DNA of 64,000 nucleotides from Mytilus trossulus (taxonomy: Eukaryota), in the NCBI RefSeq assembly GCF_036588685.1, contig NC_086375.1, positions 40,238,001 to 40,302,000 of the forward strand, given 5' to 3'. Positions 12,301 through 64,000 of this stretch are shown piece after piece. Position 1 is the stretch's first letter. Each line of letters opens with the position of its first letter. Under the pieces are notes generated by a model. It had not been told where the DNA came from. It was given only the letters and a program-made list of their open reading frames with translations, and searched no databases. A program made the translations under genes and the position numbers.

Positions 12301-15300
12301 TACCTTCAATATTGGTCCAATGAACGGAAAACTTTATCTTTAATTTAAAAAAAAGTCTTGTATAGTTTCTTTTGTTGACTAGTATATATTAAACTTTAAA
12401 ATTATGCCGCATCAAGCATCACAGAAAATGGACTGAATGTCTAAATAAATATCGTTCAAGTTGACCTCTTTTTGTGTTCATTACTTGAATAAGAAGATTT
12501 GACAACCAACTTTCCACAGAGAACAAATGACAAAGAGTTTAACAACTATATGTCACCGTAAGCTCCATATTTGAATAAGACGATGTTATATGATTGTTAA
12601 AAAGATTACTACCTGATATGCATAGAAGGAATCAGGTAGACGAAGGCTAAAAAAGGTCTCAAAGGGTTTCATAATTACCACAGACAGAAAATGCCCTTTT
12701 TATAGCAAGCGAACTACCCGACTTATGCAAACACAAATAACATAAAACAAATAGGGCATACATCAATAATTGCCAACCATTTACTCTCAGACTCCGGACT
12801 TGAAACCCATGTTTTATTTTATTCTTCAACCTTTTAATAATATAACAGTTCAACAGATCAATTTGAAAATACTTGACAAATTAAATCAGCACTAACCATT
12901 AAAAATACATACACAAACAAAGAAGACACAAAGTACCAATCTAAGATGTCATACATTTACGGAAGTTACTATCCCTATTTATATTTTGAAATGAAGAGTA
13001 TAGAATTATCAACGACCTTTACACCGAAACATATCCAATTACTGAAATATATCATAGCAATGATAACAATTTTTTTTCTACAATCAAAGCAAAAATATTC
13101 ATGCATCACATTTGAACATTTTGTTTTCTATTAAAGGTATCTCTTGTGCAAATGCGACTGTCGTTCAGAAGGTAGTATGCAAATTAAATCAGAAAAAATT
13201 ACCATATGTCAAAAGAGCTTACTTTTTTTTACATGTATCGGTAGAACATAGTGTATAGCTCCTATCAAATTAAAGCAAGTGATATAAGAACATATTTAGT
13301 AAACACAATGTCTTTATAAATATCCTCCCGCAAAACCTGAAATTACCCAGGGTTCGCGAAGCTCTGTACCGTTTTGATGTTGTGTTCTGTGTACTGTTTT
13401 TATTTTCTTTGTTTGTCATGACGTTTCAGTTCAATGTTGACTGTTGAATTTGAATTTGAATGTCATTTTGGTATTATACGACTCTCATTTAAAAATATCT
13501 AGATCCGTTACAAACAAAACTACAGTTGTAAATTTTATATGTGTTCTTGTTTCCTATATTTGAATGTGTCTTTTAGTTTCTTCAAGAAACACTGAACTAG
13601 CCATTGTAGTTAAAATAAATACAGAACACGGCTGTTGATATGTTACAGTAGAGAAAAGTTGAATACTAGGAAATGTTTATAAATGCAATAGATTGTATTG
13701 ATGTTTTTGTCTCTTAAATCAATTAGGAATAGAAAAAAATCAAGGTTACAAATAAAATATTAGGTAATCGATCGCACACACTCATAAAATGGCAACACCG
13801 TTCGCATCGCCCGTGTATGCTTTTCTTGTTATACATGTACATGTAGCACAAATCGTACGAATTCATATTTAGTGAAAATATTACAATCGGTAAAATTACA
13901 GACTAAAAGACTTTATCAAAACTAATTGTAACAATACTACAAGAATCCTTTACATCTTAGTTTATCAGAGCATCATTTGAACTTATGTTGTTGAAGGTAT
14001 TTTGATACACAATTGCAAACTTTACTTGTTTTGGTAAAATTTGCATTGCAAGGATATTAATAATTCAATTGACAATACCTAGATGTACTTCAAAACAAAT
14101 TAAAATCAGTTAAAGGTGTTTTTCTTATTTACCTTGGGATACTTTACAATTTGGAATTATTCAGCTTTTAACAATGTATGACCTATTTGGGAGTAAAGGT
14201 AATTATTTTGTTAAAACCTTTAAGTACATACATTTCGCTACATGACAGATCGAAAGAGCGTTTGAAATTAGTTCTGGTGGGAAATAAAATAGAGAAGAGA
14301 CAAATTGCTCCTTATCTTTTGCTTTTTTTTAATCACAATCTGTAAATTAATGCCAGTACTTATACCAAAGGTAGGTTGTAGTGCAATGTCAAAAGAATGT
14401 GTTGAATATTTTTTAAAAGTCCTGGCAAATCAATTTTATTAATTACTTTTACAGCAGAACCAAGTTAATATGACATTACACTCTGATCAGGTTGTCGGTC
14501 TTACTACCCCAAGAACTTCACACCTTCACATTTGCACTGGTGTCATTGGCAACCTAACGGGAGACATTAAGGTTGAAATACATTTGGCAGGAAACGCTAA
14601 CTATCAATCAATAAGTCCTATGTATTCAACTAAAACAGATACAACAGTCAACTGTGAAATTATGAGAGTCCTTAAGTTTTGGCTTGGATTCACTGCAGCT
14701 ATGTACAATGCAACTATCAGATGTCAAGTAACAAATGGCCTTTTTCCTGCTGCTTCGCCTAAATACTCTAGCAGTGAAACTCTTCAACTTGTTTCAAGTA
14801 AGTGGGAACTCGTATAGAATAAGTAGTATTTTTGTATGAAATGAAAATAAATTAAGCAAGGAAGACCATTTTGATGAAACCGTGAACACCTTTCAAAAAA
14901 ATATGGATGGATAATAGGAATAAATAGGCTTAATCAATGCAACTTAATTCCTTAATGGTTTTGATAATTAGGACTCCTTAATGTCATTTATTAATTGATT
15001 TTTATATTTACAGTTTTATAAAGGTCATATTCACCCGACTTCCCGCTTATGTAAACTTAATATCAAATTTCACACATACAACTTTGAAGCATTATCAACA
15101 TTCAGAGATGTTATAAAATAAATTGACAGAATAAGAAAAATATTTATGCATGACTATCAACTCCATGGCATTTAGTGTATTGCATATATTCGTTTATCTA
15201 CAACGACAACTAAAAATAATGCAAACACTTATAGTATGATAAACAAAGGACACCACTTTTTGTTTTTTAAATTCCCTTATTTTGTACTATCAGAAGTGTA

Positions 15301-16007
15301 CAAAATCATGTAATTTTTTAAACTTGAATATGATAACAGAAGACAAAACTTTAACAAAATTGATTTAAAATAAAAAGACACAAAAGTAAAACAAATATCA
15401 GTGTTTCAACAGCATGTGAAGATAATGTATTATTAAATTCCAATGAACGACAATTCTGGGTGTTTGTGGACAGAGGATTTTGGAAATGAATGGCATGGCC
15501 TTATATATTGTCATACGTTAAATCACAAAAATAACGAACTCAGAGGAAATTTTAAACCTAAATTCCCTAATCAAACGGCAAAATCAAAAGCTCAAACACA
15601 TTAACTTTTTGTGTCGTAGTTTGTGATTTGCTCATTTTGATTTTCCTCTTTCACTTTTGACATAATGCTGGTAGTCCTAGAATTACAGCATTTTATTGTA
15701 ATTGCTGATGTTTCATTGCTATTAAATGTGTATCGAGTATTTTCTCTGATATTACTTTCTATCTGCATTATAATTGAAACTAGACTCATGATGACCTTGT
15801 GATAACAAAACTATCTTTTCAGGTGACTTTTGTGAACAGAATTTCAATGGAACCATAACCAACAAATATCATCATCCAACAACTTGTCATAGATATGTTA
15901 CTTGTGAAGATAGAGGTCCCTCTGTTCAAGCATGTCCAGGCAATATTTGCTTTAGTTTAGAAAGAGATTATTGTGATTATTGCTCTAATGTGAAAACATG
16001 TCCGTAA
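3397..16007 (+). CDS. Paralogue 1: type II membrane Ig + chitin-binding protein (first/cytoplasmic exon not found)
   Basis: Exons, all AG/GT and phase-consistent: 3397-3559 TM (CSFCR-IGTLIAVLAILVTGLGLGVYLAI-RR); 6199-6357 S/T stalk; 7244-7288 45-nt exon; 8569-8919 Ig1; 11071-11253 CBD1; 13137-13171 35-nt exon (SISCANATVVQK); 14458-14797 Ig2; 15823-16007 CBD2 + TAA. The joined frame is open for 487 codons. Confidence 0.85.
4076..4314 (-). mobile_element. 3' tail fragment of the Penelope-like element at 395-1637
   Basis: Reverse complement of ~1400-1637 (aaagagggacgaaa...gacaacgccatggc...ctcaggtgctccggaagggtaagc). Confidence 0.8.
10909..11015 (+). repeat. Interspersed repeat (ggatggagagttgtctcattggcactcacaccacatctt family)
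   Basis: Absent from the matching intron of paralogues 2 and 4. The same motif occurs at ~17505-17570, ~37420-37487 and ~53290-53450, and reversed at ~27820-28020, ~45700-45880 and ~56185-56415. Confidence 0.7.
11511..12384. mobile_element. Non-autonomous TIR DNA transposon (MITE-like, TA target duplication; Tc1/mariner-type)
   Basis: TIRs tactagtcaacaaaagaaac... / ...gtttcttttgttgactagta, imperfectly extending to ~30 bp, flanked by TA on both sides. Empty site atgcatattatattaaac in paralogues 2 (~33040) and 4 (~63760). Confidence 0.85.
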
Positions 16008-24081: not shown

Positions 24082-27000
24082 ATGGAGCTCCCAAAAGAAA
24101 AGATAAGTTTTGAAAAACGTAATGTTGGTGCATTCGGAAACAGTTCATACAATCAAGAGTATCATTCTCCTCCAGAATGTTGTGGGAAACAGTCAGATTT
24201 AAATGGATACTTACAACCGATTAACGGAAACGAAAATAGAATATCAACTTACCATGATTACTTGATAGTTCAGGGATCCGTAAAAAGTAATTTGCCACCT
24301 GATAAAGAGCAAGATGAATCTCAATGCTGGCTACACCCCATAAAAAAAGAGAACATGGGAGATCACTGTGGAAACGAAAAGGAGTTTAGTGATCCTGATA
24401 ATTGTCCATATTCAGTTATAGCAGATTCCAATATAAAGCAGCAAGAAATCAAAGCTTTTCCTCTTTTAAAATATGTAAGTGATATAGTAACCCATAGAAT
24501 GGCGATAGGTTTTGTTTTATTAAATTAGAAAAGGATTTTAAAAAGTCATATATCGAAAATTCTTTATGTCTTGGTTTTTTAAATTCCTATCATACTTTAT
24601 ATTATAACAATTCATATTTATACACTTGAATAGTTATGTTTTACTATGAAACAAGTATATATATATTCCGAAAAAAAATCTTTTTAGAAATGTATGCTTG
24701 CGATTTGATGCAGCTAGAAATGAAATCCTCGAACTAGAAAATACTTCTTTTTGCAGTATATAGAGCCGCAAATAAAGTTATTCTATTCATTGTCGTAATG
24801 TATGCTCTTCATCTTTTGGTATGGTATACGCTGTATTTGAAATATATAGACAGACTGTTTACTTATAGGTAGAAGGACCACTTAACAGTCAAGAGATTGA
24901 AACACAAAAGGCATTGAAGAGTTCATCTTGTTCACGTTGCAAAATTGTTGCAATTGTCATTATTATAGTCATAATCATGACTGCCGTTGGCTTTGGAGTG
25001 TTTTTCCCAATTCTGAGAAATAACAGTAAAGGTCGGTTTATTTTTTAAGTTGTACATGTATGTTTGTTTTTCGAAATTATAACTTCTTGTAAGACTGTTT
25101 TTAATTAACACATTTATTGTTTGTTTTTTTTAAAGTACTGATTCGATGTATCTTTCTTTTTTTTTTAACTCAGTTCAATTTTAAACGAAATATTGATGTT
25201 TTAACTTTTTGTGGGAATCGTATTGCTTCAATTTCAGTTTAATAGTTTAGATAAACATTCCTGTTTGGTTTGTCATTTTTTCTGTGACCGTTTACAAGAG
25301 ACCTTTTCAGAAGATGATTTTCCTAACAACAAACAATAATAAATCCTTTTAATCCACAAGGCCAAATGAGTCATTTTAGATTGATACTAAATTTTAGCGA
25401 TGTAGAATTCTTTTAAAATAAAAATTACTCAAGTCCGACGCTATTTTCATACCAGTATGATTTTGGTTTGTTAATAATCATCAACCCAAATACGGATCAG
25501 CAATATCCGAAAAAGTAACACAATTGGATGGTTTCCTTATTTTCCAGCCTCCCCATGTTTTCCTTCTACACTTCCATTACTTACTTCAAGACGAAAACCT
25601 GTCAACGAAATTTTTCAACCATATGCATAACTTTTATTCGAACATTCCTTGTTTCCTTTATTTCAGATCCCACTCAGTGGCTCCCGATTCCCGCCTACTC
25701 AAACCCAAATTTTAGTATCTAAGTATATCCCTATTAAATAATCAAACACGTAATATCTTCAAGAAGGACACTAGTCCTGAAACCTAAACTAGAAATATAT
25801 TTAATGGAGATTCGTCAGTGTAATTGAAACCAATATTTTTGAAATGTTGTTCTAATATAACAACTGAAAGTAACGAAAATTAATGGGTCGTTTGAAATTT
25901 ATATATTTCAGAGAAAAACACTTCTTCGTCCTTGCTGTCAATATCAAACAAAACCATGAATGCGTCAACGACTGATCAATCGGTTACTTTTGGAACAACA
26001 ATACTCAGTACGGATGCGTCAACATATACCACTACAAATTTGGCTTCTGTGATAACAACACCAACACATGACCAGGATACATCATCAGGTACAACTAAAA
26101 GTCATGACATATAAATATGTATCGATTTATCTTCTCATCTCTTTGTTATGATGATTGAAACTTTTCACGACTTTCTTTTGATTTTTTTGTGTATTTAAAA
26201 GTTTAAATATCCAGTTCACATGTCAAACCACTTAAAGGTTGCGCACTTCTGTAAATATAGACAATGTAATTTCCAAAAGAAACTCCCTTTACGGCTAAAA
26301 CTGTTCAATTTTATCAATGAAATTTAGTAACTTCTTAGAGCATAATCTTATACTAAAATTCTGTAATACCCATCCCTTCACTTTGGGTCTTATTCAGAAT
26401 TCAATTGTCGCCGCTCACATGGGTATTCGGTAACATTCCCAAGGTATGTCTCTATGAGATGAAACATAGAGATCATATCGGGGAAGCCGTACGTAATTAA
26501 AACAATATATCTATGAATACCATATATCTCCCTAACAGCTGTATATATTTTTTTCACTCACGGGTATTGCCTGTCAACCAGTTTGCGTATGACGAGATAT
26601 ATCATGTATCAAACGAAACGAATTAAGTGTTATATTAATAAATGCTACGACATTTGCGTTAAGTTGGTCAATGTGGCTTGATTTGTAAAACAAAAGTGTA
26701 ACATTTCCATTCGCTATTTATGAGATCAATGACGAGAATAAAAGGTCATTATGGGCTTTGTTCCCTCCGTAGCAAATGAGACATGGTATATCTTCAAAGA
26801 CTCTTTGATCATCATATTGTAATTAAATCATTTGAGGTGGTATCATCTCGTTGTATAACCTATAAATGAATTTCTTATATAAAGGCTGTTTTTCAATATA
26901 TAAACAGTGATTAAAAGGACAAACATCAAAAAAGATATTATAAAAAAGTTCCTTCTTCTTGTTTTTTTAATCATTGCTGTGTGGCCAATGATAGTTCAAA

Positions 27001-30000
27001 TTGTAAAATACATTAAATCATTCTAATTAAAATTAGAATGGGTATGGGGAATGTGTCAAAGAGACAACAACCCTACCAAAGAGCAGAACACAGCCAAATG
27101 CCGCCAATACGTCTTCAACAAGCGAGAAAATCCCACACCTGGTGTTGGAAATGCTTTGCATGGAATTAACCGGTGTTTGTCTAAACAAAAACAGAGAAAA
27201 AAAAATACTCTTCTGGTGTTTGGGATATCAAACCTGAATTTGAACCCATACAAATTGCAATGAAGAAACATACACTGCATAAAACTATATAAACACACTA
27301 TTAGGTTACATGTATCATCTTTATATTAGATATATGCCATTTCAATATAAGACATGCTAAGTTTCATGTGGGCTAAATTACTGAAATATCAGTTAAAGCT
27401 TTCTATGTCGTTTTGAAGTACTTATACGAATCTGTCACTCAATCCTTCAATCTTGTAAGTTTATTACAAGTAAGTATTAAGTACAAGTTTGATCATTTTA
27501 ATGGCATGTTTAGGTTTCAATGGAGTGAAAGTGAGCTTTTAATCCTCCGAGGAGTAATTAAGTCATGCAAAGATCTTATTTATTTCTTTACAGAGAGCAG
27601 TTCATCTAAAGCACCAAGTACCACTATACAACCGCACTGTAAGTACATGACTGTATAAAAAGACGGCATACAAAATAGTTTACAGAATATAAGAAGATCG
27701 TTGCGATTCGACATACATGTAGCTGCATGAAAATTATGTGTATTATGTCATCTCATACTTTCTGATTCCACCTTCACTTTGGATTACTTTTATATAGGAT
27801 TTGTATGTCGTATATAGATATAAGAACAACTCTCTATCCAAGTCACAGTTTGTAAAAGAAATCCATCATAGGTCAAAGTACGGTCTTTAACACCAAGTAT
27901 TGACTTACACCGAACAGCAAGCCTTAAAGGGCCCCAAAAATGATTATTGTAAAACCATTCAAACAGGGAAACTAACGGTCTTATCTATATAATAAACGAG
28001 AAACGAGAAACGAGAAACACTTATCTCTGTTAAAGATTCCCTTTTAGGTGGTGTCGCTTATAAAGAAGCAAAAGTTCAGAAATATAACAGTCGCATATTT
28101 GAAAGTTTTGTTTTGCAATATGTTGTGTTTTGACTGTCCCTCTTTGGCATCACTTTTAGGAATTTTTGGTCCTAAATGCTCTTCAACTTCGTACTTTATT
28201 TGGCCTTTTAAACATTTTTTTATATTCGAGCGTCACTAAGGAGTCTTTTGTAGACGAAACGCGCGTCTGACGTAAATATAAAATGTTGGTCCTGGTATTC
28301 TCTTATGAGTTTTTCTGGTATCTTTCGTCCCTCTTTCATAGTTCGTTTCTGTGTGTGTTACATTGTTGATTGCCGTTTGGTTTTTTGTGTTTCTGTTGTT
28401 TTAATTTGTAACCCGGATTTGTTTTCTTTCAATCGATTTATGACTTTCAAACAGCGGTATACTATTATTGTTTTTATTATAATAACAAATAAATATGTGA
28501 ACTTCTTCAAATCTTAAAACTTGAAATGTAGTTTTGACCTAAATTGGTTTGTTTTCCGTTCTGTATTCATTTGCTAAAAATATTTTACAAAAAGAATTAA
28601 TACAGTTACTAAATGAGATTATTGAAGGACTCAGATTGTCCCTCTACCATGATAATAAGTGTTATAAAATTAGTTGTTTTAAAGATTCACATTGATGTCT
28701 CTACTTATTAAGTTGGATCACTGTAACCAATTATGGTGGTAACAAGAAACAAAAATTTTCAAAAGCTGAAATATCGTTACGAAATAAACTTCAGACTTTT
28801 ACGACTGTGAAAAACACGATTGGATTTATTCTTTACAAAAATTCATTACGCTAACCTCACTTAAATTTATCGATATTATATTGTTAGCTGAACATCGACT
28901 TGCCATCTTATTTATATATATTGTCTTTATTAAGTAAATTATAATATAACGCCCATTTCAATACACGAATTAAGAAGTTTTGAAACGTTTTATTAATTCA
29001 ATTTTGGAAATTTAATATAAATAATGACACACAATTTACATGTAGTTCTCAATAGAATATGATATTTTTTCATGCAACCATCTCATCACTTCCATTTTAG
29101 ACATTATGTCATCTCAAGCACTAAGTTCAACCATGCAATCTTACTGTAAGTACACCATTTTATACAAAATGTATCATATTGAAGAAGAAAAAAACAGTAA
29201 ACAGAGCATCAGAAGGCTTGGAAAATAGTTTGAGGAAAATAAACGATATATAGCATGTCGTATGTTGTCATCGATTTTGTTCCCCTTTTTGTTTTATTAT
29301 TTAATGTTATGATTTTATTGTTTTTTGGTTTTAAGTCACTTTTGTTGCAAATTCCCTTGATAAAGTGTTGTCCCTTTTGAGTGGGTGATGAAGCTAAAGG
29401 TTTTCAGTGGAACAGTTTGAGTAAATTCTTTGAAAGATATATAGACGCTATCAGGATTTAGTAAATGATACAAAATATTTTTGTGACAGATCATAAGCAT
29501 TAAAATGTTACAATTAAGTTTGCTTTCAGCCTGTCACTCTTTTTCTATATATTAGTAAAATTCTTTGAAGGCGGAAAATAATCATAAGTCGACAAGAAAC
29601 TGACAACACAATGCCAACAAAAATACAAAAGACGACGAAATTTCAAATAAAACACCGTGCAACACGGCCGCAAAAAAAACCTAGATGTCGTCATCCCAAT
29701 TATACTATCTAAAATGTGGATATTTGTCTTTAATTGAAGTATTCTGTTTCAGATTCTGTTCTGATCGGGTCAACAAAGTGTAAATCCGACAATTTAATTT
29801 TTCTATTTTTAGATCTTTACAATGCCAAGATGCATTAAGAATTAATTTCAATGACGACAAAATTCCATTCTTGTTTCTTAGTATAATAGTTTGTCCATTT
29901 TTGTTGGGTTTTTTTAAATCGTAAACACTATCTTTGTTTCTTTTTTATCAAGGTCCGCCGACTGGTTCAGCGGTTTTAAAACTCAATCCTCATCAAATAG

Positions 30001-33000
30001 CTGACCTTGCAGATAACATACACTGGTATATGCATAGTTGCGAAGCCAACGTTGGTTTTCCAGCAGGCAATCTAAGTATTGAAATTATGAAGTCTGGAGA
30101 GATGGAATTCAGAAAATTGGACATAACAGCTGTATGCACGGAAGACAAGAAAACATCATGCGAAATTCATAGAAAAATTAATTTTGGAATCGAATTTACA
30201 TCTGATATGGAGAATGCAATCATTAGATGCAAATTAATTAATAAATTCTTCCCGGACTCTCCGAAATTTTATTCCAATAATGAAACTGTTCTACTAATAC
30301 CAGGTAAATATCGCTTTTGTCACTTAAGTTTAACTAAAACATTGTGAAGACCATCAAACTAAATCATTTCTTTAAGAACTCCTTTATGATATTTGAATAA
30401 AAAATATGTGCCGATTGATGCTAAAAGTATTAGAACTTTTCAACAACAATCTGAAACATCAGTTGGTAAAGACATCGATAGTTAAAAATTAAAACTATTG
30501 GTAAATGATCGTCGCAAAAAAAAAAAAGCGTATATAATTATCATTACTAGTTTACCGACTTGTATTTCTGTCATACTTCCCAGAACGACTTTTTCCTTGT
30601 TTAGATTTTAAATCGTTTGATTAATGAATTCACATCTTCTTTTGGTCTGAGTATAAAGGAGGGAAAACAGAAGGGTCTAAATCATTTATTTGTTCATTTA
30701 AGACGATGCACTTCTAGCCCCCTTGGCCAACTTAGGATGGTAAACACTTCCGGAAATTTTGAATCCTTATTCAAACATTTGTTTACATTTACTAATGCTA
30801 CAGAAGTATAGCTCCTTAAGGTCACAATTCAAATAAGAAGATGTTGTATGAGGGTCACTGAGACAACTTTACATCTAATTTACAATGAATAAAAAGTGAA
30901 GCACATGTAAAGGGTTTTTGAAAATCGAACAGTTGCTTCACAACAAAAACAAAACAAATGCAACCAAGTCAATTGGCCTTTAGAATAATTAGATATCTAG
31001 CCTTTTCAATAAAGAATGTTTACTAACAATTAAACAAATCTTCAATAAATATGATACTCCTTTATTATTTTTTTATCTTTGATACAATCACTTCATGTTA
31101 CCTTTGAATTGTATGTGTCATTAGTCGTCATTGCAGGCTTTTCAAAATGTGTTTTAAAAACGTAATCGAGCTTGATAAGGTGTGCTGATTTGAAAAATAG
31201 ATGATTTAAATATCAGTTAAAGATCTATTGACTTATTGAAAGAGCTGAACTTTATCCACCTGTATTGTTGTGTGAAAATAAATGCATTGCAAGATGACGG
31301 ATAATACTTTGTTTATATCTAAAATCTAAGCACAAGTGTTAACGGTGTCAAAATGAAATCAGTCATAAATAATAAAGTTTACGATAAACGTTATGGAAAT
31401 GTCAACATCTTCGTTTTTTCGTGTTTTAAACTCGTCATAGAAACCAGGATTACAATTGTGCTCGTCAAGAAGGTATTTCAAATGAAAGAAAAAAATATGT
31501 TCTAATCTCCCGGAAAAGTTTAAACTTGCAGTATGCTGTATTAGTCTAGACCCATGACGATCCTAGGTCAATAAATTTGTTCAATATCAGTGCTTTTACA
31601 AAAACTACTTGTATGTTTTATGTTTTATGTTTTTATGCTTGGTCCGTTTCTGTGTGTGTTACGTTTCGGTGTTATGTCGTTGTTCTCCTCTTATATTTAA
31701 TGCGTTTCCCTCGGTTTTAGTTTGTTGCCCCGATTTTGTTTTTTGTCCATGGATTTATGAGTTTTGAACAGCGGTATACTACTGTTGCCTTTATTTATCT
31801 GAACATCTGTTTCAATCATTAAACAATTTACAGTAACGTATACATTATCCAATCTTTTCTGACGATGCACTCTTGTCAATAAATGGAATTTCTAATAATT
31901 ATCGTTCAATGTTTATCTAGAAACTATAAACTTCAAAGAAAAGATAAAAAGACCTATTACCGTTTTTCTATTTAAAGTTATCGTTCTTATAACTGTAGAT
32001 AAAATCATATGAAACTGAGAACTTAAATTAAAACGTTGTTGAATTCCGTCTATTTCAGTAAATTATAAAACAAAAATAACAAACACACAGCAGGACGATG
32101 CTATCTGTATTACGTTTGCAAATTGGTTAAACTTATTTGAGCATTCGATTGGAATTGGGAAAAGGGATCCTAAATACCAATACAATAAAGATAAAACGAG
32201 CGTAGAAATGCAACATTCATTCGGACGACTGATATATATTTCTGTTTCAATTAAATGTTGTGTAACACTTAAATTCGCAATATGCTATGCATGCATATAA
32301 CATACGTATTGATAATTGTTTATGCATTTGTAAAATTGTAATACAAATGACTTTTATTTGAATAGGTTAAACATAATTCGCCACGTTAAGTTTAAGTTAG
32401 CTAGTTAAAAACTTGCTAAACATAGTTGCCTGTATTAAATTATTTTGGTTTATGACGATTCAATTTTTTCAGGTGATGCATGCAAGGATAATACTGTCCC
32501 CCATAGCAACCGTGTACATCCCACAAATTGTCAACGTTATATACAGTGCCAAAATAAGAAACCCTATGGACAGGCCTGTCAGGAAAACTTTTGTTTTGGA
32601 ATACATACAGTAGAAACATGCAAACATTGCGATGAAGTTACATGTCCGACACAAAGTAAGAAATACATGAAATCGATTTTAGAATTTGGTGATGAATAAC
32701 AAAGTTCATTCTGTTATATTCCGTTGGTTTAGGTCATGTCTAATTTCATTTCATTGTGCACGTATATTTGCACACAGTTTTAATATGATTTAATGATTAA
32801 GTACACGAAAAACAATCCAAATAGTTATCATAAGACTCATCAGTGACGCTCAAATCAAAATATTTATAAAGCCAAACAAGTACAAAGTTGAAGAGCATTG
32901 AGGATCCAAAATTCCTAAAAGTTGTGCCAAATACGGATAAGGTAATCTATGCCAAAAACATTTTGCTTAAAAAAACGTAAAAGCTTAGCAAAGTTCGATC

Positions 33001-36000
33001 ATAGACATGGAATACAAACTTTCAACTACGTGTAAAACATGCATATTATATTAAACTTTAAAAGTATGTCGCATCAAGCATCACAGAAGATTGAATGTCT
33101 AGATACATATCGTTCAAGTTGACCTCTTTTTGTGTTAATTAGTTGAATAAGACGATTTGACAACTCTCCACAGAGAACAACAGCCAAATACCCGATTTAT
33201 GCAAACACAAGTAACATAAAACAAATAGGGCATACATCAATAATTGCCAACCATTTACTTTCAGACTCCGAACTTGAAACCCATGTTTTATTTGATGAGA
33301 CGTGGATTAACATATATGCGTCCGCTTAACTATTATTTAACCTTTTAATAATATAACAGTTCAACAGTTCAACAGATCAATTTTAAAATACTTGACAAAT
33401 TAAATCAGCACTAGCCCCTAAAAATACATACACAACCAAAGAAGACATAAGTACCAATCTAAGATTTCATACATTTACGGAAGTTACTATCCCTATTAAT
33501 ATTTTGAAATGAAGAGTATAGAATTATCAACGACCTTTACACCGAAACATATCCAATTACTGAAATATATCATAGTAATAATAACAATTTTTTTTCTTCA
33601 AAAATCAAAGCAAAAATATTCATGCATCACATTTGAACATTTTGTTTTCTATTAAAGGTATCTCTTGTGCAAATGCGACTGTAGTTCAGAAGGTAGTATG
33701 CAAATTAAAACAGAAAAAAAAAGTTATAGCTAGTGAAATTATCATATGTCAAAAGAACTAACTTTGTTTTTAACATGTATCGGTAGAACATAGTGTATAG
33801 CTCCTATCAAATTAAAGCACGTGATATAAGAACATAGATAGTAAACACAATGCTTTTATAAATATTCTCCCGCACCACCCGAAATTACCCAGGGTTCGCG
33901 TAGCTCTGTACCGTTTTGATGTTGTGTTCTGTGAACTGTTTTTTTTCTTTGTTTGCCATGACGTTTCAGTTCAATGTTGACTGATGAATTCGAATGTCTT
34001 TCTGGTATTATACGACTCGCATTTAAAAACATCTAGATCCGTTACAAACAAAACTACAGTTGTAAATTTTATATGTGTTCTTGTTTCCTATATTTGAATG
34101 TGTCTTTAAGTTTCTTCAAAAAACACTGAACTAGCCATTGTAGTTAAAATAAATACAGAACACGGCTTTGATACGTATACCACAGCTGTTGATATGATAC
34201 AGTAGAGAAAAATTGAATACTAGAAAATGTTTATAAATGCAATAGATTGAATTGATGTTTTTGTCTCTTAAATCAATTAGGAATATAAAAAAATCAAGGT
34301 TACAAATAAAATATTGGGTAATCGATCGCACAAATCAGAGTTTATCAGAGCATCATTTGAACTTATGTTGTTGAAGGTATTTTGATACACAATTGCAAAC
34401 TTTACTTGTTTTAGTAAAATTTGCATTGCAAGGATATCAATAATCTAATTGACAATACCTAGATGTACTTCAAAAAAAATATCGGTTAAAGGTGTCTTTC
34501 TTATTTACCTTTGGATACTTTACAATTTGGAATTACTCAGCCTTTAACAATGTATGACATATTTGGGAGTAAAGGTAATTATTTTGTTAGAACCTTTAAG
34601 TACATACATTTCGCTACATGACAGATCGAAAGAGCGTTTGAAAATAGTTCTGGTGGGAAATAAGATAGAGAAGAGGCAAATTGCTCCTTATCTTTTGCTT
34701 TTTTTTTTTATCATAATCTGTAAATTAATGCCAGTACTTATAACAAAGGTATGTTGTAGTGCAATGTCAAAAGAATGTGTTGAACATTTTTTTAAAGTCT
34801 TGGCAAATCAATTCATTGATTACTTTTACAGCAGAACACAGTTAGTATGACATTACACTCTGATCAGATTGTCGGTCTTACTACCCCAAGAACTTCACAC
34901 CTTCACATTTGCACTGGTGTCATTGGCAACCTAACAGGAGACATTAAGGTTGAAATATATTTGGCAGGAAACGCTAACTTTCAATCAATTAGTCCTAGGT
35001 ATTCAACTATAACAGACACAACAGTCAACTGTGAAATTATGAGAGTCCTCAAGTTTTGGATTGGATTCACTGCAGCTATGTACAATGCAACTATCAGATG
35101 TCAAGTAACAAATGGCCTTTTTCCTGATGCTTCGCCTAAATACTCTAGCAGTGAAACTCTACAACTTGTTTCTAGTAAGTGGGAACTCGTATAGAATAAG
35201 TAGTATTTTTTTATGAAATGCAAATAAATCAAGCAAGGAAGACCATTTGATGAAATCGTGGACACGTTTCAAAAATTTATGGATGGATAATAGGAACAAG
35301 TAGGCTGATTCATTTATCAATACAACTTAATTCTTTTATGATTTTGATAATTAGTACTCCTTAATGTCATTTGTTAATTGATTTTTATTTACAGTTTTAT
35401 AAAGGTCATATTCACCCGACTTCCCGCTTATATAAACTTAATATCAAATTCCACACATACAACTTTGAAGCATTATCAACATTCAGAGATGTTATAAAAT
35501 AAATTGACAAAATAAGAAAAATATTTATGCATGATTATCAACTCCATGGCATTTATTGTATTGCATATATCCGTTTATCTACAACGACAACTTAAAATAA
35601 TGCAAACACTTATATTATGATAAACAAAGGACACCACTTTTTGTTTTTTAAATTCCCTTATTTTGTACTATCATAAGTCTACAAAAGCATGTAATTTTTT
35701 AAACTTGAATATGATAACAGAAGACTAAACTTTAACAAAATTGATTTAAAAGTAAAAGACACAAAAGTAAAACAAATATCAGTGTTTCAACAGCATGTGA
35801 AGATAATGTATTATTATATTTCAATGAACGACAATTCTGGGAGTTTGTGGACAGAGGATTTTGGAAATGAGTGTCATGGCCTTAAATGTTGTCATACGTT
35901 AAATCACAAAAATAACGAACTCCGAGGAAATTTTAAACCTAAAATCCCTAATCAAACGGCTAAATCAAAAGCTCAAACATATTAACTTTTTGTGTTGTAG

Positions 36001-36388
36001 TTTGTGATTTGCTCATTTTGTTTTTCCTCTTTCACTTTTGACATAATGCTGGTAGTCCTAGAATTACAGCATTTTATTGTAATTGCGGATGTTTCATTGC
36101 TATTAAATGTGTATCGAGTATTTTCTCTGATATTACTTTTTATCTGCATTATCATTGAAACTAGACTCCTGATGACCTATTGATAACAAAACTATCTTTT
36201 AAGGTGACTTTTGTGAACAGAATTTCAATGGAACCATAACCAACAAATATCATCATCCAACAACTTGTCATAGATATGTTACTTGTGAAGATAGAGGGCC
36301 CTCTGTTCAAGCATGTCCAGGCAATATTTGCTTTAGTTTAGAAAGAGATTATTGTGATTATTGCTCTAATGTAAAAACATGTCCGTAA
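24082..36388 (+). CDS. Paralogue 2: complete type II membrane Ig + chitin-binding protein, ~638 aa (chimeric gene)
   Basis: Exons: 24082-24474 cytoplasmic tail (ATG in caaATGg); 24869-25031 TM; 25912-26088 stalk (alternative in-frame donor at 26100); 27594-27638 and 29101-29145 two 45-nt exons; 29953-30303 Ig1; 32473-32655 CBD1; 33658-33692; 34835-35174 Ig2; 36204-36388 CBD2 + TAA. Total 1917 nt, open frame. Confidence 0.9.
28130..28480 (+). mobile_element. Nested repeat fragments: PLE tail, decayed retrozyme with mutated hammerhead core, and a third repeat
   Basis: 28230-28273 reads gcgtca-ctaagga-gtcttttgtagac-gaaacgcgcgtc-tgacgt (core CUGAUGA changed to CUAAGGA), flanked by PLE-tail pieces. 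The same block is at ~56525-56890. Confidence 0.7.
31620..31797 (+). repeat. Interspersed repeat insertion (…gaacagcggtatactactgttgccttta family)
   Basis: Absent at the matching site in paralogues 1 (~10300) and 4 (~61550). Related sequence at ~28340-28480 and ~56740-56890. Confidence 0.65.
32826..32953 (-). mobile_element. Truncated family-1 retrozyme fragment (partial hammerhead)
   Basis: cataagactcatcagtgacgctc...gtaatctatgcc. Shared with paralogue 4 (~63546-63672) and absent from paralogue 1 (~11415). Confidence 0.75.
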
Positions 36389-39300
36389 CGAAACCGATAC
36401 CTATTATATTTATACCATATCTGATAAAATACTGTTTGTGCATACAAAGAAGTGGGCACTCTTCTTACTTTGTTCATACACATGCTGTATGTGGTACTCG
36501 GTAACTACATCTTTTGAAAATAACTTTTGTCAACTTTTTTCTTCTTTGTACTATTTAATTACAAAACAAAATGATGTAAAAGTTCACACAGTTCATTTGA
36601 ACTGTTTATACATTCTTTAAAGAAAATGTTGCTTTCCACTATCCATTTCGAACTAAAAATTATTTTATTATAAGACAATGCATGTATAAGTGCTAGTTTT
36701 AATCTGGACAAATTACACTGAAATGAGAGATGTGTCTGCACAATTTAGGAGGTCAGCAGTATCGAGATACAGAGGTGTGGTCTTGTATCTGTATACGGGA
36801 TGCATGTGTGTACAATGTATATATTTGTATTTGTTTTGTTTAACATTTGTATGAATTCATGTATGTGTGTTGGTTAATATGATGTGTTGATGTTCTTAAG
36901 TTGTTGTTTTTTCTCTTTTTCGTTACTTTTTCTCTTCTTTTCTTAAGCATTTTGGTTATTATTAATATTTGCTCTTCTTTGGTACATCTTCTCTTTTATA
37001 TAATTGATACACACATTTTAAAATTAAAACGTGCAAATCGATGTACAAACAACGAAGTTTCACAGAACGTTTTTTATAACATATTTTAATTTTACTTGAG
37101 CACAAAAATAATTTGCTCACTTTATCTATACTATGATGCTCTCGACAAACGTTTTTTTAAGGGTTGGGTGTAATTTTAAGTGCAAAATTGTAAATATTAA
37201 AACAGCTTATACATATAGATCCACATGTGTATGTAATGATAATGCTGCTTTGATATACTTGACGTGTAGATATTTATATTATTTATGCTATTCTTGCTTA
37301 ACCACTTTATTATACTATGTCGACTTAACGATTGGTAGTGTCAACTGTAGGGTTTTATCAGACATAGTTAAAAAGAATTGATATTTTTACACAATATGAG
37401 GATTAAGTCTTAAATCATACTTTTTAAATTGTTATTTGGATGGAGAGTTGTCTCATTGGCACTCACACCACATCTTCCTATATCTATTGTATAACTATAT
37501 TAATAGCACATCTTAAATAGAAACACAACGGCTTCATCAATGAAGATATGTGGGAAAATTTAGTTCTTATTCTATTAAAAGAAAAGAAGTAGCTATTCTT
37601 TAAAAAAAAAAACTTTTGAAATTAAGATTCAAGGGACCTTTAAACATCTTTGGTGATTTTATTAGATATCACCATTCATGACTACCGTATAATTTTGGAT
37701 CATATGAACAAGATAATGACAAACCAGTCTTTTTTGAGAGCTTAAAAAACAAGACATCCAACAACGGCATTTCTTCATTTGTAGTGATGGGAGATTGAAA
37801 TGTTGTCCAAGATTATGACAAAAGGTACTCAAGGCGTGGTCCAAATCACAAACAAAGTTGTTTGGACTGCTTCATGTGTACCGCGGATATAGAAGTCGTA
37901 GGTTGTTACTTTTGGTTGATTTTGATTAAACTTTCGAATGATCTTTGTACTAGAGGTTTTGCAGATTCATGGCTTTGAGAATACATTTATTTGTTGAATA
38001 AGGATTTGTTTTTGCCAGACTATTAGAAAGGTGGTAGTTCTTAAAAAAAATGCATTTCCCATTTGGATTAAAGTTTCAGAGTCAATATATATTTCTCCGT
38101 TTTGAGGTGGAAAGGAAAACCTTATAAAGTGAAAAGAGCAATGGTAATGTCCGCACACTTTGATGGCGATCTTAATATGTCTAATATTTCTATTCATGTT
38201 ATAGTGTAAAAAATTGTTAGAAGCCGCTTTTAATTAACAAAAACAATTGTAATATTTAAACCATGTATTTTATCATATCTTTATGATTGTATCAATCTAA
38301 CAAGTGTTACTTAAATCTTTATAATTTGTGTCTAACACTATAGTATGTTACTTCACATGTTTCATCATGAAAATTAAAAAAAAAAGTATAAATACATTAA
38401 TTAACGTAACTATAATATTCAATACATAGTCTTCAATTGAAGTGCTAATTCATGGTGTTCAAATGCAGTTAAAAATATATATGTTTACTATAGTTAGCTA
38501 CAAAATACATTTTGTTGATATTTATTTAATAATGTAATGCTCACACTTGTGTCTGCACTTTTGCAATAGCTTAATAAGTTGTCATTTTTTTTTTTATTTT
38601 ACCTCTATATTAGCCAATGTTAAATTAAAAAAACTTTGCTTTTATTACGATTTTATCAATGACAAATAATTACATTTTTATTGGAGGACATGAAATGACA
38701 CTGTCTCAACGAAAATGTTAGTTGCTTTTGATTGTTTGTCAGTATAATTTCGGACCGGAAGATATAGAAACCTTAAAAATAAAAGGTGATTATATATTTT
38801 ACAAATAGATGATTTGTCCAATGGTTCCTTGAAATTTTTCGTATACTTATCAAATTTACTGTAAAAATTGTTAACATCTAGTTATATATTAACAACTGCC
38901 AAATATAGTACACCTAGTCTATAAAGATTTATTAATATGTGTTAATCGTCAAATAAATTAAGAGTTTTACCTGACGACATTGCATTATCTACACTATTAA
39001 ACGAGAAGACCTTATTTTGTGTGTCGTTCCTCTTTTCGCAATAAATTAATCATCATGACACTGTGTCCCATATAATTTGATGAATTTATTGTTATCGAAG
39101 GTATCATATAGAAATAAGAGATAACTCCTCACCCAAGTCACAATGTGTAAACAGTAAACAATAATTTGTCATATTTGTCATAATATGATCTTCAACAGGG
39201 AGCCTTGGCTAAAGCAAGCTATAAAGGGCACAACAATTACAAATGTAAAGCAATTCAAACAGGTAAACCGACGGACTAATCTATATAAAAATACGAGAAA

Positions 39301-42300
39301 CGCTCATCAACCTCATCAACTGCTGACAAATACTAATTGACGCAATACTTAGGTGCATACAAATGCAGAGGATTAAAACCTGAACAGGCACCAACCTTTA
39401 CCCTTATCTAAACAATATTGTTACATTTAAACATACAATACACACTATAAAATATAAATTCGAATGTCTGAACTCGATCAAATAAAAATATAGAAAAAAC
39501 AAGTTAACAAACACTGAATGAATACTTTTGATATACATTTATTACACAAAGAAAATACAATATTTTTTTTAAAGTCAAAAAGACAACTTTAACCTGGGAC
39601 AAAATGGCGTTTAATAAGTTAACGTATACAGGGAAAATTGAATATAATGACTTGTTTGTACATGTAGGAGTACGAAAATATTTTTTTGTATTTTTCAAAT
39701 AAATAAGTTTGCTGTTCAAGAGTACGAAGGTAAACACTTATCGTTTTACTAAATACTTATCAAAAGGGTTTCAGAATAAAAAGAGTAAGACGAGATATAA
39801 CAGCATTGAATAACTAAAATGCATTACAAATTTTGTCAATATGTCATATAAACAAGAAAGTACGATATGAAAATTCAATCAAAACACATCTCAGGGATTT
39901 AGTTTTTAACGCCATGGACACCTATAGAAAACATGACGTGTGCAATGTTTATATTAAAACATCGACAGGCATTTAGATTGTTGAAATCTAACCTTATAAT
40001 GAAAATGTATCATATTTTATATATATAAAGTAACCTATATACGAAATAAACGTGGATGTGTATTTTGATATCCCACAATTCAAATTAAGTTCTGTTTTAA
40101 TTTGTTGATGACAAAATCGATATGTGTGCCAATTTTAAACAGCATAAATAAACTGCCATATATAGTACACATATTCTTTAAAAAAATTTTCATGTGTTTT
40201 TATCGTCAAATGAACCAAGAGTTTAACCTGACGAAATTGAATTACCTATACTATTAAACGAGGAGACCTTATTTTGTGCGTCGTGTCCCTAATTTCGCAA
40301 TAAATTAATCATCATGCCTCTGTGTCCTATAGAATTTGATGAATTTATTGTTATCCTAGATGTCACATAGAAATAAGAAGATATGAAATGACTGCCGATG
40401 ATATAACTCTTCACCCTTTTTCTTCTTTATACATTCTCTAAATCATATAACTGCGTTTAATTTCTCTTTCAAAGAAGGACTAACTGAACCATTTATTTCC
40501 TTGGTAATACTATGTACCCAGACTTAAATTTGAACTAGATTAAATAAATAAAAGATCGTGAGATGGTTGAATATTCAATTTTTAAAGTTATTTTCATGTG
40601 TAATCAGGGATTTTCCCGACCGATCTGCCAAATGTTTATAAAATATGTGGATAAAACGGTCAAGTGATTTCAATGATTTAATGTGGAAGTACAAAGAAAG
40701 CTGTGACTTTTAGTACATGTGAGATTGCTATACTCTATATGACAACGACCTTTTGTGGTATAAATATTCTTAACACTTAAGGGACAAGGAAGTGCATATT
40801 CAAATGTTAAATCCTCACGTGCAGAATATCTATTACAAAATTGCTCACACGAAGGTAAAATCCGAAACTTAATCGATTTGCTTCGATCCTTTCATCGTAG
40901 TGTGATTCCCTTTTAAAGAAATCAATCATTTTTCCCATATATTTAAGATAATCTAGATTAAAGCTCATCGGTAATTTTAAACATACGTGCAACATTATCT
41001 TTCTTGTCCTGTGCTGAGCCTGAAGCGAAGTCAAATTTTCTATATTTACTAGCATTGATTATTTTGATTCTTAATACCTAACTAAGCATATATTGCAATC
41101 TACGTATTTTAAAACTCTTATGGTCCTGCACATTGTTGATACTCATATGTTTGTGTATATAAACTGAATCCGTTGGATGTATGCTTGAAATTATAATTAC
41201 AAAAATACAGAAATAAACTCTAAAGAAAATTCAAAACGGAGAGTCACTAATTCTACCGAACTTTTCAGTCGTTTGGAAATAATGACCTATTAATTCTATG
41301 TGTTGATCTACGACTTTGAACTAGGGCTTTCATCAATGCAAATACAATGTGATCGCTAATTAATCAGTTCGATTAATAAGTCGGTGGCTTTAACGCCTCT
41401 TTCAGCACTACTGGTTAAATTGGAAGTCATTTTAAATTTTACACGGGAAAAAAGAGTGTCTGAAGAGAACCAACGACCTTCGTTAGGCAAACTCACAATT
41501 ATAGTCAGTGGAGATTACAGTGGGGCTAACCTAGATGCGGAGTTGAAAGACGTTGAACACTCGGCCACCCCTAGTAATTTTCAGAATCAGTCTATAGTCC
41601 CTTTTATATATAAGGCAAGTCCTTCACAACTGATTTGTTTGGACAGGACCTTGTGAGGTGATGATTTGATACTCTGCCACATTCGGATATGCGTGTCTCA
41701 AACCTAACGCGCAGTGGCTGTCGTTTGCAGTTGTCTGTCATGACTTGATTGTTTTACTTAAATGCTAGTTTAGTCTCGGTTTTAGTTTGTAACCTGGATT
41801 TTTTTTCCCGAAATAAATTTAAGACTTTTAAACTGTAGTATACTACCTTGCCTTTTTCCAAGAGTCATAAAACGTTGAAAATAGTGAATAAAGTTTTAAC
41901 CTGGTTCCAATTCGTACAGCTATATATGCAATATCTCATTTATTTACTTAATAATTATGATAGTTCCGGGATCGTGTTTGTTTCAATTCGGAAATTGACG
42001 AGTCCTATTAATATATATTGATGTATGCACCTGTCTAGTATTTCACATAGTACAATTTAGCATCGCAATATTACGGACGCCATCATGAGTTGGTTGACCG
42101 TCATGAAATATCTGTTTCATGGATGATAGTAGATACATTCAAATATCGTTACAACTATAACGATCCCTTTTCCCGAATGTTACCTATCGCTTGAATCATA
42201 TTACCTGGTTTGTAAAATATCTATTTTAGCATGGATAGACTTTCAACTATGCTCGTATCAATTTGTTTTAATTTTATTTTTAAATAGGAATGTGATATGA

Positions 42301-42811: not shown

Positions 42812-45800
42812 ATGGAGCTCCCAAAAGAAAAGATTAGTTTTGAAAAACGTAATGTTGGTGCATTCGGAAACAGTTCATACAATCAAGAGTATCATTCTCC
42901 TCCAGAATGTTGTGGGAAACAGTCAGATTTAAATGGATACTTACAACCGATTAACGGAAACGAAAATAGAATATCATCTAACCATGATTACTTGATAGTT
43001 CAGGGATCCGTAAAAAGTAATTTGCCACCTGATAAAGAGCAAGATGAATCTCACAGCTGGCTACACCCCATGAAAAAAGAGAAAATGGGAGATCAATGTG
43101 GAAACGAAAAGGAGTTTAGTGAACTTGATAATTGTCCATATTCAGTTATAGCAGATTCTAATATAAAGCAGCAAGAGGTCAAAGCTTTTCCTTTAATAAA
43201 ATATGTAAGTGATATAGTAACCCGTAGAATGGCTATAGGTTTATTTTATTAAATTATAAAAGGATTTTAAAAAGTCATATATCGAAAATTCTGTATGTCT
43301 TGGTTTTTTAAATTCCTATCATACTTCATATTATAATAATTCATATTTATTCACTTGAATAGTTATGTTTTACTATGAAAAAAGTTTAAATATATAAAAA
43401 AAAATCCGAAAAAGGTTTCTTTTTAGAAATATATGCTTGTGATTTGATGCAGCTAAAAATGAAATCCTCGAACTATAAAATATATACTTCTTTTTTGCAG
43501 CATATAGAGCATCAAATAAAGTTATTCTATTCATTGTCGTAATGTATGCTCTTCATCTTTTGGTATGGTATACGCTGTATTTGAAATATATAAACAGACT
43601 GTTTACTTATAGGTAGAAGGACCATTGAACAGTCAAGAGATTGAAACACAAAAGACATTGAAGAGTTCATCTTGTTCACGTTGCAAAATTGTTGCAATTG
43701 TTATTATTATAGTCATACTCATGACTACCGTTGGCCTTGGAGTGTTTTTCCCAATTATGAGAAATAACAGTAAAGGTCGGTTTATTTTAAGTTGTTTATG
43801 TATGTTTGTTTTTCGAAATTATAACTTTATTGCTAAAATTGTTTGTAATTAACACATTTATTGTTTTATTTTAAAGTACTGATTCGATGTACCTTATTTT
43901 TAACTCAGTTCAATTTTAAACGAAATATTGATGTTTTTGATTTTTGTGGGGATCGTATTGCTTCAATTTCAGTTTAAAAGAGGGACGAAAGATACCAAAG
44001 GGACAGTCAAACTCGTAAATCTAAAACAAACTGACAACGCCATGGCTAAAAATGAAAAAGACAAACAGAAAAACAATAGTACACATGACACAACATAGAA
44101 AACTAAAGAATAAACTACATTCGAACTTTCCTTGTTTCCTCTATTTCAGATCCTACTCAGTGGCTCCCGATTCCCGCCTACTCAAACCCAAATTTTTGTA
44201 TTTAAGTATTTCCCTATCAAATAATCAAACACGTAATATCTTCAAGAAGGACACTAGTCCTGAAACATAAACTAGAAATATATTAAATGGAGATTCGTCA
44301 GTGTAATTGAAACCAATATTTTTTAAATGTTGTTCTAATATAACAACTAAAAGTAACGAAAATTAATGGGTCGTTTGAAATCTATATATTTCAGAGAAAA
44401 ACACTTCTTCGTCCTTGCTGTCAAAATCAAACAAAACCATGAATGCGTCAACAACTGATCAAACTGTTACTTTTGGAACAACAATACTCAGTACGGATGC
44501 GTCAACATATAGCACTACAAATTCGGCTTCTGTGATAACAACACCAACACATGACCAGGATATATCATCAGGTACAACTAAAAGTCATGGCAAATAACTG
44601 AGACATATGTATCGATTTATCTTCTCATCTCTTTGTTATGATGATTGAAACTTTGTGACTTTCTTTTGATTTTGGTGTATTTAATAGGTCAAATATCCAG
44701 TTCACATGTCAAACCACTTAAAGGTTGCACTTCTGTAAATATAGACAATGTATTTTCCCATAGAAACTCCCTTTACGGCTAAAACTGTTCAATTTTATCA
44801 ATAAAATTTAGTAACTTCTTAGAGTATAAACATATACTAAAATTCTGTAATACTTATCCGTTCACTTTGGGTCTTATTTAGAATTCAATTATCGCCGCTA
44901 ACATGTGTATTCGATAACATTCCCAAGGTATGTCTCTACGAGATGAAACATAGTGATCATATCTTGGAAGCCATTCGTAATCAACAAGTAAGTGCAACAT
45001 ATATATTTTTTCACTCATGGATATTGCCTGTTAACCAGTTTGCGTATGACGAGATATATCATGTATCACACGACACGAATTAAGTGTTATATTAATAAAT
45101 ACTACGCCATTTGCATTAAGCTGGTCAATGTGGCTTAATATGTAAAACAAAAGTGTCACATTTACTGCATAAAATTATATTAACACAATTTTAGGTTACA
45201 TGTATAATCTTTATATTATATATATGCCATTTCAGTACAAGACATGCTTAGTTTCATATGGGCAAAATTACTGAAATATCAGTTGAAGCTTTCTATGTCG
45301 TTTTGAAGTACTTATACGAATCTGTCACTCAATCCTTCAATCTTGTAAGTTTATTACAAGTAAGTATTAAGTACAAATAAGATCATTTAATGGCGTGTTT
45401 AGGTTTCAATGGAGTGAAAGTGAACTTTTAATCCTCTGATTTAGTTATGAAAAGTTCTTATTCAATTTTTACAGAGAGCAGCTCATCTCAAGCACCAAAT
45501 ACCACTATACAACCGCACTGTAAGTACAAAACTGTAAAAAACAGACGGCATACAAAATAGTTTACAGAATCTAAGAAGATCGTATTCGACATACATGAAG
45601 CTGCATGAAAATAATGTGAATGATGTCATCTTATACTTTCTTATTCCCCCTTCCGTCTGGATTACTTTTACATAGGATTTGTATGTCATATATAGATATA
45701 ATAAGTTGTGGTATGAGTACCAATGGAACAACTCTCTATCCAAGTCACAATTTGTAAAAGAAAACCATTATAGGTCAAAGTACGGTCTTCGACACCAAGC

Positions 45801-53800: not shown

Positions 53801-54284
53801 CAGAATAAGATATTTTTGTATATTCATCCTATTATTACAGTCATGCCTTCAATAACAAATGTATCCGATGCATGCATTTTTTGATATTTTTGGTCCCTTT
53901 TTCAATTTTGTGGGGTCCAAATTTATTGACAAAAGTCCTTTAATATAGATATTTGGAATTCGTTGACATGCTGAATCTATCCGTGTATCAACCATATGCA
54001 TAACTTTTATTCGAACTTTCCTTGTTTCCTTCATTTCAGATCCCACTCAGTGGCTCCCGATTCCCGCCTACTCAAACCCAATTTTTTGTATCTAAGTATA
54101 TCCCTATTAAATAATCAAATACGTAATATCTTCAAGAAGGACACTTGTCCTGAAACCTAAACTAGAAATATATTTAATGGAGATTCGTCAGTGTAATTGA
54201 AACCAATATTTTTGAAATGTTGTTCTAATATAACAACTGAAAGTAACGAAAATTAATGGGTCGTTTGAAATCTATATATTTCAG

Positions 54285-63374: not shown

Positions 63375-64000
63375 GTAAGAAATAAATGAAATCGATTTTA
63401 GAATTTGGTGATGAATAACAAAGTTCATTCTGTTATATTCCGTTGGTTTAGGTCATGTCTAATTTCATTTCATTGTGCACGTATATTTGCACACAGTTTT
63501 AATATGATTTAATGATTAAGTACACGAAAAACAATCCAAATAGTTATCATAAGACTCATCAGTGACGCTCAAATCAAAATATTTATAAAGCCAAACAAGT
63601 ACAAAGTTGAAGAGCATTGAGGATCCAAAATTCCAAAACGTTGTGCCAAATACGGGTAAGGTAATCTATGCCAAAAACATTTTGCTTGAAAAACGTAAAA
63701 GCTTAGCAAAGTTCGATCATAGACATGGAATACAAACTTTCAACTACGTGTAAAACATGCATATTATATTAAACTTTAAAAGTATGTCGCATCAAGCAAC
63801 ACAGAAAATAGATTGAATGTCTAAATAAATATCGTTCAAGTTGACCTCTTTTTGTGTTCATTATTTTAATAAGAAGATGTGACAACTCTCCACAGAGAAC
63901 AAATGACAAAGAGGTTAACAACTATATGTCACCGTAAGCTTTCATTTTTGAAAAAGACGATGTTATATGATTGTGAAAAAGATAAATACCTGATATGCAT

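Follow-up and report, generated by a model that had tools for sequence, protein, structure and literature searches.

How a receptor-like gene comes to share one part with one neighbour and the rest with another is the question raised by a 64,000-nucleotide stretch of Mytilus trossulus DNA (assembly GCF_036588685.1, contig NC_086375.1, positions 40,238,001 to 40,302,000; hereafter the window). The gene in question, G2, is the second of a tandem array and lies at window 24082-36388, where ten GT-AG coding exons give an uninterrupted 639-amino-acid frame; an earlier note on this DNA had described an in-frame hybrid. We use 'head' for the side encoding the tail, transmembrane segment (TM) and stalk, 'body' for the immunoglobulin (Ig) and chitin-binding domain (CBD) exons, and A, B, P and H for lineages. 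G2 is a hybrid of a G3/G7-lineage (B) head and a G1-lineage (A) body, of which we are practically certain. We consider it probable that this intact hybrid stems from an out-of-register tandem-duplication junction, likely reshaped by exchange with its neighbours.

Self-BLAST of the window matches G2 to G3 at 20921-25245 (94.7%), 25636-26706 (90.3%) and 27268-28130 (82.4%), and to G1 from 28773 to 39557. The first of these series agrees with the earlier note, which had matched the tail, TM, stalk, first micro-exon and their introns to G3 as far as ~28105. The same note's descriptions of G1 and G3 as divergent and of the intergenic region as duplicated are also borne out, since G1 and G3 can be aligned in exons and repeats only, and 36403-38885 copies 16469-18949 at 92.5%. 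A tree of head-exon DNA places G2 with G3, G5 and G7 (support 100/100; identity 95-96% to G3/G5, 67% to G1), whereas trees of the body exons place it with G1/G4 (Ig1 100/100, CBD1 100/99, Ig2 100/100, CBD2 97/97) at 95-99% identity to G1 and 72-77% to G3, so that the topology switches between exons as had been anticipated. The approximately unbiased (AU) test rejects a G1+G2 grouping for the head (p=1.5e-5) and a G2+G3+G5+G7 grouping for the body (p=5.5e-5), and the mosaic is far beyond chance. For Ig1 alone, the AU test does not separate G1+G2 from G2+G4 (p=0.19). G6 was excluded from the protein trees because of its frameshifts.

The junction between the two parts is staggered and out of register (Table 1). 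Inside 28131-28497, apart from a 21-bp repeat word, the search revealed no homology shared with the corresponding introns of G1 or G3. The two micro-exons of G2 are paralogues derived from a single 45-nt exon (phase 1-1), which is present once in G1, G3, G5, G7 and H1 and twice only in G2 and G4. To the right, G2 and G1 differ at 197 of 888 gap-free sites over 28773-29940 (22%; 74-77% identity) and at 40 of 1630 over 29941-31621 (2.5%; Fisher p=3e-57 for the contrast). This step at the Ig1 acceptor marks a second breakpoint, and the present 5' part of G1 was probably not the donor; either G1 is itself a hybrid with its break at that acceptor, or later conversion altered its body. The match to G1 that the earlier note drew from ~28780 onward therefore holds in the sense of homology, but up to 29940 it is no recent copy. 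Among 40 scored matches, the 1.1 kb to the right of the junction recurs only in G4 (92%) and G1 (74%). On the left flank, G2 differs from G3 at 66 of 716 sites and from G7 at 79 of 534 (15%). Divergence thus climbs toward the junction from both sides, from 3.4% to 9.2% against G3 and from 2.5% to 22% against G1, and three-way site patterns reveal conversion patches along the body, the odd copy being G4 at 29951-31060 and G1 at 32135-32735.

Elsewhere in the window, ancestry apparently also changes at the Ig1 splice acceptor in G3 (46542-47012) and in G1 (8189-8556), which suggests that the conserved start of this exon may be a recurrent exchange point. A 354-bp tandem repeat (3.6 copies, 97% matches) occupies 18951-20236; fragments of this high-copy element are also present, in inverted orientation, at the G2 junction (28143-28274), and again at 32829-32953.

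An account that would accommodate these observations begins with the tandem duplication of a block made up of the A micro-exon, the A body, intergenic DNA and the B head as far as its micro-exon. Unequal exchange, or repair or template switching at the repeat fragments, would have brought an intron of B up against one of the A lineage. The A part would probably have come from a sister copy older than the present head of G1, whose body would subsequently have been homogenised from the Ig1 exon onward, and G2+G3 would then have been duplicated again to give G4+G5. The product would have an N-terminal tail with tyrosine motifs, one TM, a mucin-like stalk 15 amino acids longer than that of G3 and two C-type Ig/CBM14 pairs, and the hybrid would place the ectodomain of A behind the promoter and tail of B.

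The G2 protein has one hydrophobic segment, near residues 148-182, and no N-terminal one; C-terminal to the TM lie 10 of its 11 N-glycosylation sequons and a stalk of 46% Ser/Thr, and a type II membrane protein is predicted. Both CBD exons pass the Pfam CBM_14 cut-off of 22.1 bits (22.7 and 26.3). No Pfam Ig family matches in 35 aligned domains and sequence searches of the PDB likewise miss the Ig domain; the Atlas gave no usable feature match, its Ig-containing structure rows all being sub-threshold. A fold of Ig1 from the single sequence was unusable (predicted local distance difference test score, pLDDT, 36.8) and an alignment-based model (pLDDT 87.9) was taken, with Ig domains throughout its PDB match lists. 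Its best matches are the second domains of CD166, RAGE and the Lutheran protein (Z 11.7-11.8, root-mean-square deviation 2.2-2.6 Å over 105-108 residues), against a Z of ~8.8 for V domains, and the top matches are thus second (C-type) domains. All 27 tails examined carry at least two YxxV/I-type motifs. By consensus patterns, the immunoreceptor tyrosine-based inhibitory motif (ITIM) has one match in G1 and none in G2, and the activation motif (ITAM) is found in 0 of the 27 tails; the TMs of G1, G2 and G3 have no charged residue. Because the tails share such motifs and the TMs are uncharged, the swap most likely changes the promoter, the tail and the length of the stalk, and not the sign of a signal. 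A likely role for the proteins would be to bind glycans resembling chitin on the surface of epithelia or haemocytes. The tail exon of G1 (window -2093 to -1797) encodes 99 amino acids that can hardly be aligned to other tails and contains that gene's ITIM-consensus match; no public relative of it was found among longer proteins, which is weak evidence.

It is also quite possible, if on balance doubtful, that G2 is a neutral by-product or young pseudogene and that the proteins serve in matrix adhesion to the mussel's own chitin rather than as immune receptors, a reading that concerns function and is compatible with the preferred origin by duplication. Two RNA runs gave no reads on G2 exons in the portions read and the array includes headless (G4) and frameshifted (G6) copies, while for adhesion speak the enrichment of both CBM_14 and Ig domains in the mussel mantle rim, as the consulted part of one study has it (PMC5549309), the adhesion-type Ig domains among the best fold matches and the larger mucin-like relatives in Mytilus (P0012, P0049). 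A mere by-product, however, sits poorly with an open frame and canonical splice sites over ten exons, with two tyrosine motifs retained in all 27 tails, and with a ratio of non-synonymous to synonymous divergence (pN/pS) of 0.22 between the bodies of G2 and G4. Functional diversification of immune receptors is for us a tentative and rather unlikely proposition.

As to origin, the earlier note had proposed one unequal crossover between ancestral genes 1 and 3, with, in its best form, later conversion homogenising all but the junction flanks. The arrangement it envisaged, a duplication junction with a G3-type head on a G1-type body, is what the locus has, in the expected order G1, intergenic, G2, intergenic, G3, and the rise of divergence on both sides of the junction and the conversion patches in the body would follow from it. 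What does not hold is that the parents were pure and the crossover single and in register: the flanks differ twofold in age (9% against 22%) and the 22% side predates the split of the G2 and G7 heads (15%), the join is staggered and retains the two micro-exons, no homology in common was found there, a breakpoint of its own marks G1, and G3 is a mosaic. We therefore regard this simpler model as improbable.

It is far less probable still that G2 is the older gene and that G1 and G3 are derived hybrids which each took one half from it. Such a history could draw on the breakpoints near the Ig1 acceptor in both G1 and G3, the G1 tail for which no public relative was found and the G2-like sequence in a further sequencing run, X2. 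Against it, the B head accompanies a G7 body in three other species, the sister of the A body (M. coruscus P0008) bears a head of G6 type with a single micro-exon, and two micro-exons of different lineages occur only in G2/G4. G2 would thus still be a fusion, even if it later acted as a donor, and as an explanation of its origin this alternative is largely refuted.

Two further sources bear on whether the hybrid exists in the animal. G4, a fourth copy that the earlier note did not include, matches G2 across the switch (25615-29369 against 53988-57813, 95.7%), with 69 differences in 3613 gap-free sites over the junction (1.9%), and with the same junction present at this divergence G2 is not an assembly join. 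In run X2, which is filed under another organism code, contigs match G2 at 98-99% to the left and right of the junction, with 6 differences from G2 in 833 sites over the tail and TM (31 for G5, 40 for G3) and 8 in 436 at 28673-29108, where G1 is 72% identical. The divergence of 1.9% is about that of mussel heterozygosity, 1.73% in the part of the source consulted (PMC7653742), and G4-G5 might therefore represent a second haplotype of G2-G3, which would affect only copy number. That merged haplotypes or a mis-join produced the hybrid itself is highly improbable, for although this haplotype-like divergence and the 52-kb units at 99.4-99.7% identity in a second sub-cluster could be cited for it, the junction is present twice with independent differences, 1.4 kb beside it copies neither G1 nor G3 and is present at 98% in X2, and G4-G5 and G2-G3 differ in large insertions, head loss and CBD2 lineage. 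Doubt is confined at most to copy number.

Exchange of this kind extends beyond G2. The Ig1 exon has 45 matches in the 1.30-Gb genome, every one on the window's contig at 40.05-40.87 Mb; its 16 protein matches are all from Mytilus. Distant relatives occur in Pecten and in freshwater mussels. G3, too, is a hybrid, with a G7-type head, Ig1-CBD1-Ig2 of the P lineage, and CBD2 and flanks of G7 type; a G3+G5 grouping is rejected for CBD2 (AU, p=0.005). The P body is joined to a head of its own kind in M. coruscus, M. californianus, M. edulis and M. galloprovincialis, one that was not found in this genome, where the best match among 10 candidates reaches 57%. We classified 24 public proteins by module (23 plus P0073), leaving out near-identical isoforms and single-exon fragments, and excluding P0012 and other large mucin-like relatives as different in architecture. 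They comprise P head/P body (5), B head/G7 body (4), H head/H body (6), G6 head/A-sister body (1), H head/P body with a B-type micro-exon (3; two from M. edulis, one from M. galloprovincialis), H head/A body (2), B stalk/P body (1) and headless or partial proteins (2). The H head/A body proteins are M. edulis P0016 and P0073, the latter 89-97% identical to G1/G2/G4 in all four domains. All six proteins of M. coruscus and M. californianus fall in the P/P, B/G7, H/H and G6/A-sister classes, and the discordant classes belong to the M. edulis complex, across which the A ectodomain and the P ectodomain are each seen with three heads. Since the B head goes with a G7-type body across species (M. coruscus P0013, M. 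edulis P0007, M. galloprovincialis P0021/P0022 and the local G7), its position on an A body is a derived state. These combinations are those of predicted proteins, in which some joins may be annotation errors (the RefSeq isoforms P0024 and P0001 apparently fuse two tandem genes); H/P and H/A recur in separate records. Head/ectodomain exchange thus appears to be recurrent in this Mytilus array, and the cluster probably diversifies by ordinary recombination among tandem copies.

Several points weigh against our reading of G2. Its pN/pS is 0.56-0.78 in the head and 0.52 between the G1 and G2 bodies, on small counts, which is weak evidence of constraint. G2 exon reads number 0 in both RNA runs, which were chosen by species label and of which 6% and 18% were read, and no RNA run is listed for 24000-30400. 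No contig bridges the junction among the eight pieces listed for each of runs X1 and X2, owing to the high-copy repeats there, and X1, which may be the assembly's own sample, is not counted as support. A B head with an A body is absent from all 24 classified public proteins, and NCBI's model of G4 is a 170-amino-acid fragment. P0007 combines a G3-like tail with a G7 stalk; B heads thus also exchange with G7, which blurs the argument from divergence as a clock, and with it the order of events and the identity of the donor of 28498-29940.

Table 1. Exons and junction of G2 and neighbouring genes of the array, in window coordinates extended into the flanking DNA
Feature	Position	Strand	Remarks
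G2 exon 1, predicted cytoplasmic tail, 131 codons	24082..24474	+	B-type (G3/G5/G7 lineage); two YxxV/I motifs; 95-96% to G3/G5, 92% to G7
G2 exon 2, juxtamembrane CxxC and single uncharged TM	24869..25031	+	B-type
G2 exon 3, Ser/Thr-rich stalk	25912..26088	+	B-type
G2 micro-exon 1, 45 nt, phase 1-1	27594..27638	+	B-type; 93% to G3/G5
Junction interval	28131..28497	.	G3 homology stops at 28130; G1 homology first at 28498 (38 bp), next at 28773; high-copy repeat fragments inside
Old A-lineage segment	28498..29940	+	homologue of G1 6565-8556, 22% diverged; otherwise in the genome only in G4
G2 micro-exon 2, 45 nt, phase 1-1	29101..29145	+	paralogue of micro-exon 1 (69%); 82% to G1 micro-exon
G2 Ig1 exon, predicted C-type Ig fold	29953..30303	+	A-type; 98% to G1; second breakpoint at acceptor
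G2 CBD1 exon	32473..32655	+	Pfam CBM_14 above cut-off
G2 linker exon, 35 nt	33658..33692	+	
G2 Ig2 exon	34832..35174	+	A-type; 95% to G1
G2 CBD2 exon including stop	36204..36388	+	CBM_14 above cut-off; 99% to G1
Duplicated intergenic block	36403..39557	.	copy of 16469-20927
G1	tail exon from -2093; TM to CBD2 3397..16007	+	head divergent, body A-type; probably a hybrid, or converted, at ~8556
G3	42812..51114	+	B-type head, P-type Ig1-CBD1-Ig2, G7-type CBD2 (switch near 50720); mosaic
G4	53988..64000 in the window, up to 67970 beyond	+	second B-stalk/A-body hybrid; same junction, both micro-exons; without tail and TM
G5	74676-88941		
G6	98129-109070		frameshifted
G7	116123-135233		

The array runs in the order G1, G2, G3, G4, G5, G6, G7. 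A candidate 48-nt exon of G2 at 25667-25714 was dropped, being unnecessary for the frame and such that it would introduce a stop in G3. G4 lacks tail and TM yet keeps an open frame of 454 codons from the stalk onward (pN/pS 0.22 against G2). It may have been truncated recently, or it may be spliced as an alternative ectodomain to the head of G3; the NCBI model P0047 (M. trossulus, 170 amino acids) is identical to its last two exons. Fragments of reverse-transcriptase-like frames at 339-1640 (+) and 57813-59735 (-) were judged by eye to be non-LTR (long terminal repeat) retrotransposons, the second being an insertion in a G4 intron that is missing from G2. Directly after G7, an array of ~2-kb units (95-99% identity, with an internal inverted repeat) fills 140575-164000, before the gap of 290 kb to the H genes, a second sub-cluster ~290 kb past G7. 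There, at 40.69-40.84 Mb, a 52-kb unit is present in about three copies, each with one headless gene and one gene with three Ig-CBD pairs; this repetition is either a very recent change of copy number or an assembly expansion. On either side of the array, at 40.05-40.22 and 40.85-40.87 Mb, lie Ig/CBM14 exons that are more distant and occur on both strands; they are probably the large mucin-like relatives, for example P0012 and P0049.

That tandem arrays contain hybrid paralogues is textbook material, and the mechanism, an anti-Lepore-type fusion plus conversion, is already known. A single chimera would therefore be modest news; the added value lies in a type II Ig/chitin-binding membrane family in which head/ectodomain exchange recurs in several mussel lineages, a testable case of an invertebrate rewiring ligand binding to expression and signalling. 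For orthology and annotation, the cluster needs to be treated exon by exon. Our literature search found no published Mytilus case of such chimeras, and no description of the family, including in the consulted parts of PMC5877582 and PMC5549309; supplementary gene lists and subscription papers lay outside its coverage. Unnamed Mytilus proteins (XP_071162985, XP_071162986, CAC5391880-884, XP_052105723) belong to the same family and share its exon modules, the closest at 88-99% identity per module; as retrieved, they are annotated as uncharacterised or 'chitin-binding type-2 domain-containing' and none combines a B head with an A body.

Among known systems, the closest in mechanism are the anti-Lepore-type HBB/HBD fusions of the mammalian beta-globin cluster, which, in the portion of the source available to us, are in frame, lie between parental-type copies, arose repeatedly and were later converted (PMC4041002). 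Like them, G2 has 5' and 3' parts that group with different paralogues, lies between donor-type copies with duplicated intergenic DNA and sets the 5' regulatory part of one gene on the coding parts of another; unlike them, its junction is out of register with a doubled micro-exon, its halves come from lineages ~22-34% diverged in exons, and neither flanking gene is a pure parent. The earlier note had likened the exchange to paired-receptor evolution, as in SIGLEC5/SIGLEC14 and SIGLEC11/SIGLEC16 and the SIGLEC14/5 fusion, type I proteins in which, according to the text consulted, an ITIM tail is paired with a DAP12-coupled partner (PMC4042635). Near-identical ectodomains on different tails, through exchange between adjacent genes, are indeed common to both (G1/G2 body exons 95-99%, heads 67%). 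The inhibitory/activating design is not, with no charged TM residue in G1, G2 or G3 and no ITAM in the 27 tails. G1 and G2 are predicted to be type II, with long tyrosine-motif tails in both, and the analogy appears weak. We would suggest, with little confidence, that this is an undescribed family of chitin-sensing signalling receptors in mussels, a membrane-bound convergent of the VCBPs (chitin-binding proteins with a variable region), and that its heads (promoter, tyrosine tail, TM) and Ig-CBM14 ectodomains are mixed and matched in the germline and selection keeps the hybrids in frame. The VCBPs of amphioxus and Ciona, as far as the consulted part of the source describes them, are secreted, with V-type domains and one CBD (PMC4757023). 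G2 shares with them the union of Ig-fold domains with a chitin-binding one (CBM_14), whereas its family is predicted to be membrane-anchored, type II and not secreted, its C-type Ig domains alternating with CBM14 ones and its tail cytoplasmic; the likeness observed is one of domain content.

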